A DNA stretch of 64,000 bases from NCBI GenBank assembly GCA_945872855.1, contig CAMCAW010000004.1, forward strand, positions 7,666 to 71,665, in the 5' to 3' direction. The notes below the pieces were generated by a model. It did no database searches and was not told the DNA's origin. It was given only the letters and a program-made list of their open reading frames with translations. Each line of letters starts with the position of its first letter. Position 1 is the stretch's first letter. The position numbers and the translations under genes were made by a program. Positions 18,740 to 43,795 of the stretch are shown one piece after another. The stretch comes from Rickettsia typhi. GTDB taxonomy: Bacteria; Pseudomonadota; Alphaproteobacteria; Rickettsiales; UBA1997.

Positions 18740-18848
18740 TCTTGTCCTCGGTCAGAGCCCCTTCCAGACATACTTCGCCCCTCAGACACCGGCACGCCGA
18801 ACTCGGTTCGAAGCATATCTGGAAGGGGCTCTTACCTTTCTTGAGATT
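18740..18848. repeat. Palindromic intergenic element, copy 1 (subfamily A, forward orientation)
   Basis: Arms 18754-18777 (agagccccttccagacatacttcg) and 18809-18832 (cgaagcatatctggaaggggctct) pair at 22 of 24 positions. They flank the core cccctcagacaccggcacgccgaactcggtt. The element lies between the divergent sucC and hemD starts. Confidence 0.85.
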
Positions 18849-18905
18849 TTTTATTCCGATAAATTGCAAATACTTTTTTGTAAACTTTTTTAGCCTCACA
18901 AACAA

Positions 18906-19595
18906 ATGTTAACTTATCTAATTATTCGCGCTGAAGATGATGCTCGCAAAACTGCTGGGATTTTTCGAAATGAAGGGGTCGAGACTATTGTCGAGCCAAT
19001 TTTTTCTGTTGAGAATTTAGTGGTTAATGTGGAGAATAAAAACCCGCAAGCGCTTGTAATCACTAGCTCTAACGCTTGCGATGCTATTATAAATTCTGGA
19101 TTTGCGCTTAATATTAAAATTTTTGCTATCGGCCATAGAAGCGCGCAAAAACTGTTGGAGCGCGGCTATAATAATATTTTTTATCCGGAAATAAATTCTG
19201 CTGAAGGCTTAAAAAATTTGATCATCGCGAATTTGCCTACGCAGCAAGGTGAGATTATATATTTTTGTGGAGATTTTATTACTCTCGATTTTAAATTGGA
19301 ATTAGAGCCGCTTGGTTTTACAGTTGTAAAAATTCTTGCTTATAAAGTTAAATGGAACGAAAATTTCTCGGCCGAATTTTTGAAAAAAACGCAGGAAAAG
19401 CAAATTGATTTTATTTTATTTTACTCCAAAAATAGCGTGAAAAAATTTTACGAACTCGCAAAAAATAACAATCTTCTTGAATATTTTGGCAATTCAAGGC
19501 TATTGTGTTTAAGCGATAAAATTGCCGCAACAGCAAAAGAACTGGGCTTCAAAAACTTAGGCAATTTTAATGAAATTCCTACTTTAAAAAAATAA
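18906..19595 (+). CDS. hemD: Uroporphyrinogen-III synthase-like protein
   Basis: 229 aa. The HemD-like N-terminus (LIIRAEDDARKTAGIFRNEGVETIVEPIF) and two-lobe length fit, as does the position upstream of hemY-like genes seen in other alphaproteobacteria. Confidence 0.6.
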   Translation: MLTYLIIRAEDDARKTAGIFRNEGVETIVEPIFSVENLVVNVENKNPQALVITSSNACDAIINSGFALNIKIFAIGHRSAQKLLERGYNNIFYPEINSAEGLKNLIIANLPTQQGEIIYFCGDFITLDFKLELEPLGFTVVKILAYKVKWNENFSAEFLKKTQEKQIDFILFYSKNSVKKFYELAKNNNLLEYFGNSRLLCLSDKIAATAKELGFKNLGNFNEIPTLKK

Positions 19596-19597
19596 TT

Positions 19598-41219: not shown

Positions 41220-41222
41220 ATT

Positions 41223-43622
41223 CTAGCCTCCTGATGTTGCTTTTAAACATTGATCATAGCCAAACAAATCTAATAACTCACGATATTTTTTGCTTTGCGG
41301 AGCGTTGAGCTGAGAGTCTTCATGTAAAATTACTTGGGCATTTTTATGGGCGATTTTTAGAAGATCGGTATCTAGCGCGAGATCGGCAATTTTAAATTCT
41401 GGAACGCCGCTTTGCTTAGTGCCGAGCAGTTCGCCGCTGCCTCGCATTTTTAAATCTTCCTCGGCGATGAAAAATCCATCATTGCTGCGCTTGAGGATTG
41501 ACAAGCGCTCGCGGCCTTTTGTGCCATATTTTTTGCCGTAGAGTAAAATGCAGTAAGATTGCTTCTCGCCACGCCCGACGCGGCCGCGCAGCTGATGCAA
41601 TTGCGAAAGTCCAAAATTTTCAGCATTTTCGATGACGATTATTGCAGCCTCTTTTACGTCAATTCCAACTTCAATAACAGTGGTTGCAACTAGGATTTGC
41701 GGGGATCGACCGCCTTCTACAATGCTATTTTCTGCATCATAAATAATTACAATATTTTTTTGATCAGAGATTTTTTTAGTAGATTTATTATCTTCTGCGA
41801 TAGCGAATGAAGATGCCGCTGATCCTTTGCCAGCAAAGCTTTCCATCACTTTCTCTTTTTCGCTTTCTTTCATTTTTCCATGAATTAGTGCCACGGTTTT
41901 TTCACCAAAAACTTCTTGTAATTCCTTATATTTTTCTTCTGCCGCAACTAGCTCCACCTCTTCATTTTCCTCGATCGCGGGGCATATCCAATAAATTTTT
42001 TCTTGCTTTACAAGGGCGCGTTTTATCGCCACAAAAACTTCGGATTTTTTATTTTCTGACATCACCAAAGTCTCGATTTCCTTACGGCCCGCAGGCTTCT
42101 CACCTAAAATTGAAATATCCATATCGCCATAAATTGCCATCATCAAGCTACGCGGAATAGGCGTGGCGCTCATTAGCAACACATCAACTTCGGGGCCTTT
42201 TTCTACCAATTTTAATCTTTGCATTACGCCAAAACGATGCTGCTCGTCGATCACCACAAGTGCGAGATTTTGGAATATTACGTCATCTTGCAGAACCGCA
42301 TGGGTACTGATTAGAATATCAATTTTTCCTTCGCGCAACTCTTGTAAAATTTTAGCTTTTTGCTTCTTGGTTTGCTTGCCAAGAAGCAATTCTATAACTG
42401 GTTTTCGTGAATTATTTTGCGCAGAAGTTAACTTAGAAGAAGAGTTTTGCTGCGTATTTTGCAAAGACGAATCCGCTTTCAAGCTAGAAAAATCAAGGTT
42501 TTGCAGCATTTTCTGAAAATAGGAAAAATGCTGTTCTGCAAGAATTGTGATTGGAACAATAATGCAAGATTGCTTACCTTGCGAAAAGGCGAGAAGGCAG
42601 GCGTAGATTGCTAGCACGGTCTTTCCCGAACCAACGTCGCCTTGCAATAATCGCAGCATTTTTTTATTAGAAAGGACATTGTTTTTTATTTCTGAAGCGG
42701 CGCGAAGCTGTGCATTTGTTGGCTTAAAAGGCATTGCTGCCAAAAATTCATCAGCAAAATTTCTGGTGATTTTTGGCATTTTTTTAGTAACAACTTCCGC
42801 CTCTTTAACCAGCAATAGAGCCAATTGCCACGCCAACATTTCATCATAAGCCAATCTTTTTTTGGCGTGATTTATATTTTGCACTTGCTCTCTCTGCTCT
42901 TGAAAATCCTCTTCGCAAGAGTCATAAACCAAGCCTTTCTGCTCTTGAAAATTTTCTGCAGGTGAAAATTTTGTTACAGAATTTGGCAAAAGATTTTTCT
43001 CTTTTTTATAATCATGCATCATTTCTAAAGCATCTGCAAAACTAGGCCAGTTCTGGCTTTGTAGCAATTTCTTATCGATCCATTCTTGCTCTGGCGAATA
43101 TTCTTTTTTCAAAATTTGCAACGCTTCTTCGATTTTTTGACGCAAGAATTTTGGCGTTAAAGCATAGGTCATTGGATAAATAATATTGGTCTTAGGCAAC
43201 GTATCTATTAGCGCGACGTCAAGAATTTCTTGCGGATGAGTAATTTGATTTTCACCAAGCGACCGCTGCAAATGCCCTAAAATAGCTAATTCGCGGCCTA
43301 TTGCGAGTTTTTCAATTTGACTGGGAAAGATTTTGAAAAATATTAAAGTTATATATCCGCTTGGTGTGCGACACAGAATTTTGTAAGGCTGGCGCGATGT
43401 TGTGGGCTTAGTGTGAATTTCAACTTTCGCCTTAATAATGACTAAAGAGTTATTTTCGATATCAGAAAGCTGTGAGGCTAAAAGAATTTTTTCGGACTTG
43501 AGTGGGAAGTGTAAAAGTAGGTTAAAAATTTTATTTTTGCCGACTAGCCTCACTAGAGTCTCTTCGATTGCGGGGCCTACTCGCTTTAGCGACGATAATG
43601 GTGAGAGTAATATTTTTAGCAT
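41223..43622 (-). CDS. recG: ATP-dependent DNA helicase RecG, with lineage-specific insertions
   Basis: OB-wedge N-terminus and helicase motifs GDVGSGKTVLA, DEQHRFGV, MSATPIPRSL and QLHQLRGRVGRG. At 799 aa it is about 100 aa longer than E. coli RecG. Confidence 0.93.
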   Translation of the reverse strand: MLKILLSPLSSLKRVGPAIEETLVRLVGKNKIFNLLLHFPLKSEKILLASQLSDIENNSLVIIKAKVEIHTKPTTSRQPYKILCRTPSGYITLIFFKIFPSQIEKLAIGRELAILGHLQRSLGENQITHPQEILDVALIDTLPKTNIIYPMTYALTPKFLRQKIEEALQILKKEYSPEQEWIDKKLLQSQNWPSFADALEMMHDYKKEKNLLPNSVTKFSPAENFQEQKGLVYDSCEEDFQEQREQVQNINHAKKRLAYDEMLAWQLALLLVKEAEVVTKKMPKITRNFADEFLAAMPFKPTNAQLRAASEIKNNVLSNKKMLRLLQGDVGSGKTVLAIYACLLAFSQGKQSCIIVPITILAEQHFSYFQKMLQNLDFSSLKADSSLQNTQQNSSSKLTSAQNNSRKPVIELLLGKQTKKQKAKILQELREGKIDILISTHAVLQDDVIFQNLALVVIDEQHRFGVMQRLKLVEKGPEVDVLLMSATPIPRSLMMAIYGDMDISILGEKPAGRKEIETLVMSENKKSEVFVAIKRALVKQEKIYWICPAIEENEEVELVAAEEKYKELQEVFGEKTVALIHGKMKESEKEKVMESFAGKGSAASSFAIAEDNKSTKKISDQKNIVIIYDAENSIVEGGRSPQILVATTVIEVGIDVKEAAIIVIENAENFGLSQLHQLRGRVGRGEKQSYCILLYGKKYGTKGRERLSILKRSNDGFFIAEEDLKMRGSGELLGTKQSGVPEFKIADLALDTDLLKIAHKNAQVILHEDSQLNAPQSKKYRELLDLFGYDQCLKATSGG

Positions 43623-43686
43623 GAAAATATGGTTTAAATGCTTGTGGTTTTTAGAATTAATTACCTGTTTGTGCGCTATTCATTCA

Positions 43687-43795
43687 GATCTTGCCCTCGG
43701 CAAAAACCCCTTCCGACATACTTAGCCCCTTAGACAGCGGCGCGCCGAACTCGGTTTGAAGCATATCGGGAAATGGTTTTTGCCCTTTTCTTAAC
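43687..43795. repeat. Palindromic intergenic element, copy 5 (subfamily A, forward orientation)
   Basis: Arms 43699-43725 (ggcaaaaaccccttccgacatacttag) and 43757-43784 (tgaagcatatcgggaaatggtttttgcc) flank ccccttagacagcggcgcgccgaactcggtt. The element lies between the smpB stop and the recG start. Confidence 0.85.

Follow-up and report, generated by a model that had tools for sequence, protein, structure and literature searches.

The window analysed here is a 64-kb stretch of contig CAMCAW010000004.1 from an uncultured freshwater Rickettsiales-like bacterium represented by metagenomic material. It carries, between genes such as sucC and hemD, dapD, pyrD and metK, a DsbB-family gene and mnmG, and smpB and recG, a family of hairpin repeats of ~112 bp, present as four full copies and one half copy (Table 1). 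An earlier note had reported five such elements, and all five were present when the sequence was read and aligned, with their edges refined by a few bases; the asymmetric core, the reversed orientation of copy 4 and the strictly intergenic placement were also as that note described them. Its expectation of additional copies elsewhere was borne out by two full ones lying 0.9–2.2 kb past the window start on the same contig, which in the ENA assembly reaches 4.9 kb beyond that point. The total is seven copies, in both orientations, in the ~69 kb of host genome that was read (window plus flank); the dozens to hundreds per genome suggested earlier would be an extrapolation from this number. All seven are intergenic, one in a divergent, five in tandem and one in a convergent spacer, and the flanks are unrelated between copies, supporting a dispersed, non-coding, palindromic and strictly intergenic repeat family.

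A nhmmer profile built from the four full copies recovered these at E = 3e-36 to 7e-29 and copy 3 at E = 2.4e-8, and an unfiltered search with a covariance model (R1) gave E = 1e-36 to 8e-27 for the full copies and a marginal E = 0.18 for copy 3. All five window copies were recovered by these models, copy 3 most weakly, and neither nhmmer nor R1 detected a further member within the 64-kb window. The 14-mer CGCCGAACTCGGTT occurs five times exactly in the window compared with 0.24 expected (none of 100 shuffles reached five), and the left terminus AGATCTYGNNNNCGG has seven matches compared with 1.24 expected, five of the seven being the five copies. An assembly artefact or a chance similarity is hardly credible, as the motif counts far exceed those of the shuffles and the same elements stand in the window, on two ENA MEGAHIT contigs (ERZ27280332, 99.9–100% identity) and on Logan contigs of a separate run (runs ERR5863120 and SRR15198271, again 99.9–100% identity to the window). 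Two short-read contigs from an independent assembly (L082 and L091) begin or stop inside copies 1, 2 and 5, which is the expected effect of a dispersed repeat on an assembly graph.

The forward strand of the element is defined as the strand that reads CCCCTCAGAC...AACTCGGTT. On this strand, a full element of 107–115 bp has A(G/A)ATCT(T/C)G as its left end. An asymmetric internal bulge, in which TGGTCGGC faces CGCCTATTT, comes next, then the main stem (26–28 bp) and an asymmetric loop of 28–31 nt made up of CCCCTCAGAC, a variable ACAGCGGC(A/G) and CGCCGAACTCGGTT; the return arm leads to a right end (T/C)(G/A)AGATTT, after which further T residues are often present. The ends A(G/A)ATCT and AGATTT form a 6-bp pairing in four of the six full copies, with 72% pairing across the outer helix. 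The arms, previously put at 24–28 nt, measure 26–28 nt at 89–96% complementarity in copies 1, 2 and 4, and folding of these three copies, which the earlier note had proposed as a check, resulted in z-scores of -5.1 to -6.7 as DNA and -6.1 to -9.0 as RNA. The stem of copy 5 is decayed (DNA z = -0.85), as is that of the extra copy cA. The elements are richer in G+C (48–62%) than the window (40.5%). In five of the six full copies, each strand has a reading frame that runs through the element without a stop, so that the elements can draw false gene calls; a 74-aa open reading frame (ORF) at 22632–22856, called as a gene on the ENA contig, spans copy 2 and is probably spurious. At the junctions of the two extra copies, the terminus and flank of cB (L088 13384–13412) contain a tandem duplication of 14/15 nt (AAGATCTTGAATCT / AAGGATCTTGAATCT), and the 12-mer GGATAGATCTTG at the cA junction (L088 12138–12149) is also found in the tyrS 3' flank of a related contig (L289, ~2009–2020).

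Copy 3 was correctly reported as present, but it is not simply a short copy, because its terminus is on the + strand and its core on the - strand, a relation opposite to that in every full copy. Copy 3 is a chimera: its left-type terminus and arm, on the + strand, run into a core in inverted orientation, after which the element is cut short. Inversion of the loop through arm–arm recombination, or re-symmetrization of the outer part by template switching, would fit this arrangement. Aligned over 20.8 kb, the window and the ENA contig differ at 22 single bases, of which 16 fall within 24159–24662, covering the 3' end of pyrD and copy 3, a cluster that looks like a recombination tract between strains.

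The copies are 63–86% identical overall, and their differences are not evenly distributed. Eight of the 28 main-stem pairs have changed on both sides (15 cells). Shuffles gave a mean of 4.3 such double-changed pairs, with 12 of 500 reaching eight and none reaching the observed cell count or covariation score, and sliding the 3' partner by 1–3 columns left 1–4 double-changed pairs. Paired cells amount to 84.9% in the true register compared with 32–51% in the slid controls. Two subfamilies, A and B, are distinguished by a compensated change, CTTCG/CGAAG compared with CTCTG/CAGAG. In the loop, none of the 14 columns of CGCCGAACTCGGTT varies, compared with 31 of 56 columns in the arms (Fisher p = 1.2e-4), and mean pairwise identity is lowest at the right end (0.50) and highest in the centre (0.90–1.00). 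The best reading of these data is that stem pairing and the asymmetric central motif (CCCCTCAGAC ... GGC-N-S-GCCGAA-CTCGG) are both under selection.

The two strands of the element differ in the mismatches that the main stem tolerates. Transition mismatches on the forward (CCCCTCAGAC) strand are A·C in 14 cells and G·T in three, and a forward A·C mismatch is a G·T on the other (AACCGAGTTCGGCG) strand. When shared mismatches are counted once and the members from two relatives described below (Jr-7aug17-213 and L288) are added, our count is ~12 independent events compared with 3 (binomial p ~0.035). Reverse-strand RNA folds 0.8–13 kcal/mol better in all four full copies of the window. GC skew is negative throughout the window, indicating a single replichore in which the copies still face both ways, and the mismatch bias therefore follows the orientation of the element and not the chromosome strand. 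A replication-strand bias was rejected on the same grounds, with four of the six full copies on the + strand and two on the - strand in window coordinates. The strand asymmetry is no more than suggestive.

A family of small RNA genes, each with its own promoter and yielding a hairpin RNA of ~110 nt with a sequence-specific loop, would display what is seen here, as structured RNAs are classically marked by covarying stems around a conserved loop and the G·U-compatible mismatches concentrate on one strand. We nevertheless consider this explanation very unlikely. There is no conserved promoter in the unrelated flanks, a promoter scan gave no hits of promoter-like hexamers at the elements, and the perfect duplexes of 44–52 bp found in related species would be substrates for RNase III. 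Complementarity of the loop to 16S rRNA or to other window sequence was considered and rejected, the longest exact 16S match being 8 nt and no notable complementarity being present elsewhere in the window. Rfam provides no family for the elements, with no match at gathering thresholds and, at E values up to 10, a single element match of 22.9 bits between copy 4 and a eukaryotic microRNA-precursor hairpin model whose gathering score is 66.

The clearest information on what is conserved in the element comes from other species, whose loci were read over ~20 kb each, the distant ones being reached through the TyrS of the first. A two-motif pattern followed by R1 identified a full-length member (107 bits, E = 1e-28) in the metagenome-assembled genome (MAG) "Rickettsiales bacterium Jr-7aug17-213"; the "Jr-" prefix belongs to sample names from Jiricka pond, a humic water body in Czechia (PMC8547001). 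This member occupies the spacer between tyrS and a convergent ORF of 218 aa, in a region that bears no relation to the window. It is 68–81% identical to the window copies and as near to subfamily A as these copies are to each other, and has an extra compensated stem change (TTG/CAA) and the same ends. Two further species, with loci 68–85% nucleotide-identical to each other and to the Jr contig, carry three diverged members that score 44–55 bits with R1 and keep the loop core GGC-N-S-GCCGAA / CTCAGAC...GAACTCG. Their arms are 44–52 bp long and self-complementary with at most one mismatch. The loops of these members are significantly similar to those of the window (0–11 of 300 shuffles reach the observed score), whereas the arms are not (shuffle fraction 0.03–1.0, lowest for copy 4 of the window against the GROS21 member GROS_E2). 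An unrelated perfect hairpin with 32-bp arms in the same locus has no R1 score and an AT-rich hairpin of the window (36945–37054) reaches 14 bits, indicating that R1 does not simply match any hairpin. From one species to another, different arms surround a retained centre, and the arms are almost perfectly complementary all the same.

The spacer 3' of tyrS (L284 10853–10984, L280 11510–11643, L289 1998–2115, and L286 and L290) holds a different insert in each lineage and appears to be an insertion hot spot. The inserts are a window-type element in the Jr genome, a 52-bp-arm element in GROS21, a second hairpin family in L289 and a gene with a Bro-N domain in L286 and L290. The second hairpin family, which is not found in the window, is present at L286 5707–5791 and L289 2053–2115 with an identical 21-nt loop, GTAGCTGTGCTTGCGCGCGAA, starting with GTAG, and with perfect arms of 32 bp and 21 bp that are largely different at the two loci, repeating the pattern of a kept loop and free arms.

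Table 1. Hairpin elements of the window, its flank and related species. Gene identities of the copy 1 neighbours are from the Pfam list; positions without a contig label are window coordinates.
Element	Position	Strand	Stem or arms	Loop, core and ends	Setting
Copy 1, full, subfamily A	18737-18849	+	18750-18777 / 18809-18836	Loop 18778-18808, CCCCTCAGACACCGGCACGCCGAACTCGGTT; left end AAATCT, right end GAGATTT	Between divergent sucC (start 18630, -) and hemD (start 18906, +)
Copy 2, full, subfamily B	22691-22797	+	22704-22729 / 22758-22783	Loop 28 nt with 3-nt deletion; right end degenerate	Starts 9 nt past dapD stop (22681)
Copy 3, half element, subfamily B arm	24630-24685	mixed	Truncated after GGCGC	Left-type terminus AGATCTCGCCCTCGG on +; core CGCCGAACTCGGTT on - (24670-24683)	Between convergent pyrD (stop 24582) and metK (stop 24722); adjoins predicted metK terminator (24699-24711)
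Copy 4, full, subfamily B	33234-33346	-	33247-33274 / 33306-33333, 96% complementarity	Best-folding copy	86 nt past DsbB-family gene stop (33147), 75 nt ahead of mnmG start (33422)
Copy 5, full-length, decayed, subfamily A	43686-43798	+	Several mismatches and one indel	Core CCCCTTAGAC; right end degenerate	Between smpB (stop 43903, -) and recG (start 43622, -)
Copy cA, full	L088 12142-12256	+			Between dprA and folP
Copy cB, full	L088 13280-13390	-			Between folP and dnaK
GROS21 member	L280 11510-11631		52/52 bp	Loop TTAACGGCACGCCGAAGC	From tyrS stop codon
GROS21 member	L280 17968-18073		44/44 bp	Loop TCGACGGCAGGCCGAATT	Between convergent genes
GCA_945865905.1 member	L286, L288, L289, L290		45/46 bp	Loop CTGCTCAGACACCGCAC[~37-nt insert]GCAGAACTCGCCT	Spacer upstream of tyrS

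This pattern bears directly on whether the family is a classical miniature inverted-repeat transposable element (MITE), that is, an internally deleted derivative of an insertion sequence (IS) moved by a DDE transposase acting on A(G/A)ATCT(T/C)G ... (C/T)(G/A)AGATTT, with target duplications that are eroded or too short to see. The copies are indeed small, non-coding, dispersed among several intergenic sites and found in both orientations, most have short imperfect terminal inverted repeats (consistent with the enriched left terminus and the partly paired outer helix), and the Jr copy has the same ends. In contrast, a transposon of this kind should be preserved at its ends, and here the right end is the least conserved part and the centre the most, and the members of the other species share the centre and have entirely different ends. 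Sequence inspection found no flanking direct repeat or target duplication abutting any of the six full copies, the tandem repeat across the cB terminus being the sole duplication nearby. Precomputed Pfam lists and a Pfam scan gave no IS or transposase in the ~69 kb, extending what had been noted for the immediate neighbourhood. We regard the classical MITE as a doubtful explanation.

The main rival to the explanation favored below is a cis-acting structure of the host, such as a stabilizer or terminator of mRNA 3' ends, an RNase III site or a loop-reading site of a regulatory or nucleoid protein, kept by purifying selection whatever its origin. Diverged copies still pair and retain the invariant 14-nt motif, and 10 of the 11 distinct sites in the window, flank and relatives are downstream of at least one gene, four of them between convergent genes. 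A member occupies the tyrS 3' spacer in two species with 74–82% nucleotide identity, in the same orientation to tyrS, and by our reading an orthologous copy in two strains at 94% identity shows few base differences. On the forward strand, the extended hairpin is followed by a T-run in several copies. Hairpin and T-run, however, are oriented behind an upstream gene in only two of the six full copies (cA and copy 2), and a terminator scan called no canonical terminator formed by the main hairpin of the elements, whose perfect stems of 44–52 bp in the relatives far exceed what a terminator needs. The genes on either side of copy 1 start divergently. Of the 11 sites, five have the better-folding strand as the sense strand, three have it as the other strand and three are ambiguous, a mixed orientation that makes a strand-specific RNA role unlikely. 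The dsbB–mnmG spacer of the nearest syntenic relative, L004, is AT-rich and without the element, which weakly supports an insertion; with L004 at 45–64% protein identity, the ends of the element or a target duplication are not definable from it. Taken together, a host function is possible, if on balance unlikely.

We favor, at about an even chance, the explanation that the family is a non-autonomous and probably selfish hairpin element mobilized in trans by a structure-specific enzyme. In such a scheme, an enzyme encoded elsewhere in the genome would bind the folded single strand, recognizing the loop sequence together with any stem, as HUH-type nucleases and other structure-specific recombinases treat hairpins and unlike a DDE transposase acting on duplex terminal inverted repeats. 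Through this enzyme the element would have reached its intergenic sites, inserting either way round. Complementarity of the arms would be kept either by selection for the hairpin or by intrastrand template switching that recopies one arm from the other, and by either route the arms could drift or be swapped wholesale between species while the loop stays. Once inserted, the hairpins would be co-transcribed with their neighbours, and any influence on mRNA ends would be secondary. The fixed centre and the free arms and ends argue against recognition of duplex terminal repeats and for recognition of a folded strand through its loop, and the missing target duplication and the wobble bias toward one strand agree with single-strand recognition. 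The element is thus probably recognized as single-stranded DNA, and we infer mobility, a single-strand mechanism and the nature of the enzyme from these patterns. Copying of the arms from the local flanks at each insertion was rejected for the window family, the arms being common to copies at different loci, but may apply to the two GROS21 elements.

Several observations weigh against this explanation. The only strain comparison, at 99.9% identity, has every copy in place and gave no empty site or presence/absence polymorphism, and the copies are old (63–86% identical) and show no sign of recent activity. No candidate for the mobilizing enzyme was found in the ~69 kb reached. The strand asymmetry comprises ~15 events, not all of them independent, and in the short outer helix the tendency is the opposite, with six G·T cells compared with two A·C. 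The loop is part of the model that detected the members in other species, so that their loop similarity is partly ascertained. Finally, lasting pairing and a lasting loop in diverged copies fit a host function equally well.

An extension of the same idea, which we offer tentatively and think rather unlikely, is that freshwater Rickettsiales harbour an undescribed class of mobile hairpins that are "loop-anchored". The loop GGC-N-S-GCCGAA and its shoulders, CTCAGAC / GAACTCGG, would be read on one strand by a structure-specific enzyme of single-strand DNA (HUH-like or of another type), template switching would regenerate the arms as perfect palindromes or else they would evolve freely, and the element would persist by its centre and not by its ends. 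The GTAGCTGTGCTTGCGCGCGAA family of the related species would then be a sister system.

The earlier note had likened the elements to MITE or repetitive extragenic palindromic (REP) sequences and to Rickettsia palindromic elements (RPEs), and had recognized no described family; the last statement held, with the Rfam, plasmid and viral-contig scans all empty, and the two likenesses found no support in the form given. REP sequences are imperfect palindromes of 20–40 bp with a GTAG or CGTC head (PMC3733652). The present family shares with REP and REPIN sequences, which are mobilized by REP-associated tyrosine transposases (RAYTs, HUH enzymes of the IS200/IS605-like Y1 type whose genes are usually flanked by REP sequences), an intergenic hairpin, the lack of a target-site duplication and of an internal transposase, compensatory change and a presumed recognition of single strands, with a strand-specific structure. 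In contrast, neither GTAG nor CGTC is found at the ends of its arms or of the element, no RAYT was seen in the ~69 kb inspected, and the pattern of conservation is inverted: a REPIN consists of two conserved REP sequences around a variable spacer, whereas here the spacer, the loop, is invariant and the arms vary. Retention of the loop with replacement of the stems across species is the reverse of ordinary MITE and REP behaviour.

For RPEs we relied on a published description (PMC10969869). Like them, the elements are palindromic, ~100–150 bp long, part of a Rickettsiales genome and without an associated transposase, the reading frames stay open across the element, and the mobilization mechanism of neither is known. 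RPEs are, however, defined in the genus Rickettsia and nearly half lie in-frame in protein genes, whereas no in-frame insertion was seen here, all seven host copies and the four distinct sites in relatives being intergenic. Our setting apart of the family from RPE-1 to RPE-10 is by description and by core-pattern scans, not by consensus sequence. Four such scans of 185,579 species-representative genomes gave, among the matches listed, a single genuine member, which belongs to a freshwater Rickettsiales MAG from an uncultured organism, and no member in a record titled with the genus Rickettsia. Strict core patterns found no true member in species-representative genomes, JGI metagenomes or viral contigs, their few matches being due to chance, the matches listed for the loosest pattern were chance matches in GC-rich genomes, and no member was found in plasmids or viral contigs. 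Searches with six-frame translations (concatenated, and as a four-frame profile of six copies) against a collection of 5.8 billion proteins returned nothing at E ≤ 10, as would happen where matches of 35–40 aa are too weak for so large a database. The host also stands apart, with its MnmG at most 63% identical to the nearest sequenced relatives among the species-representative genomes, all uncultured freshwater MAGs and mostly labelled Rickettsiales.

Correia and ERIC elements have well-conserved terminal inverted repeats, and Correia elements have a TA target duplication. The present elements resemble both the Correia (NEMIS) and the ERIC family in size (~100–150 bp), in being imperfect palindromes over their whole length, in their intergenic placement and as co-transcribed hairpins; they differ in that they have no duplication, weakly conserved ends, no promoter-like hexamers and no sequence similarity that we could see. 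Hairpin origins of the HUH type, that is, rolling-circle Rep origins and the ends of IS200/IS605, combine a free stem sequence with a conserved loop and a structure formed on one strand. Our comparison with them is one of function only, as those sites are single-copy in plasmids, viruses and IS and lie beside a Rep or TnpA gene, whereas here many copies are dispersed over a chromosome with no such gene in the ~69 kb. Inversion and the carriage of an IHF site and promoters have been reported for Correia elements (PMC10969869), and the core of copy 3 is likewise inverted relative to its terminus. An integron attC site, which has R''/R' boxes (RYYYAAC / GTTRRRY) at the base of its stem and belongs to arrays of cassettes in one orientation beside intI, was rejected because such boxes are absent, the elements are scattered among housekeeping genes in both orientations and the Pfam lists contain no integrase in the ~69 kb; DNA-uptake sequence, CRISPR and tRNA-like readings were rejected on anatomy and context. 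On the sequence comparisons made here, the family is a previously undescribed one that belongs among the small intergenic palindromic repeats.

Some other features of the window were recorded. The MnmG encoded at 33422–35626 has 734 aa compared with ~615–620 aa in most relatives, with that of L004 longer still; the extra residues lie in low-complexity inserts rich in Asn, Ser, Lys and Glu at ~116–170, 460–500 and 600–630. An insertion of the element into this protein was considered and rejected, as the ~110 extra residues are of low complexity and unrelated to the element. The 16S gene (37213–38701, - strand) stands alone, with no 23S or 5S gene within the 64-kb window, and its flanks (36468–40110) hold one ORF of the CHMI family and one resembling DNA polymerase III delta; Rickettsiales typically have a split rRNA operon. 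The AT-rich hairpin (36962–37039, TTTAGATTCT...AGAATCTAAA), with 29-nt arms at 83% complementarity, separates the 3' end of the 16S gene from the start of the neighbouring ORF and could be an rRNA processing stem or a terminator. At 12821–14360, long ORFs on opposite strands overlap (12837–14360, + strand; 12821–13732, - strand), with no Pfam match for either product, and a degenerate direct repeat of 33–45 nt is found at 13037–13149.

Bacteria commonly carry small palindromic repeats, most families of which, the RPEs of Rickettsia included, have no known mobilizing mechanism. The family described here offers an unusually clean contrast, with stems swapped between species and the loop retained, which suggests that a single strand is recognized in its folded form by way of the loop. 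If this is confirmed, the loop motif, the preferred strand and the covariance model would provide a handle for finding the enzyme or host factor involved, and would permit annotation of the elements in the numerous genomes of uncultured Rickettsiales, in which they interrupt assemblies made from short reads and give rise to spurious gene calls. If the elements are instead regulatory hairpins of the host, they would constitute a lineage-specific set of marked gene boundaries.

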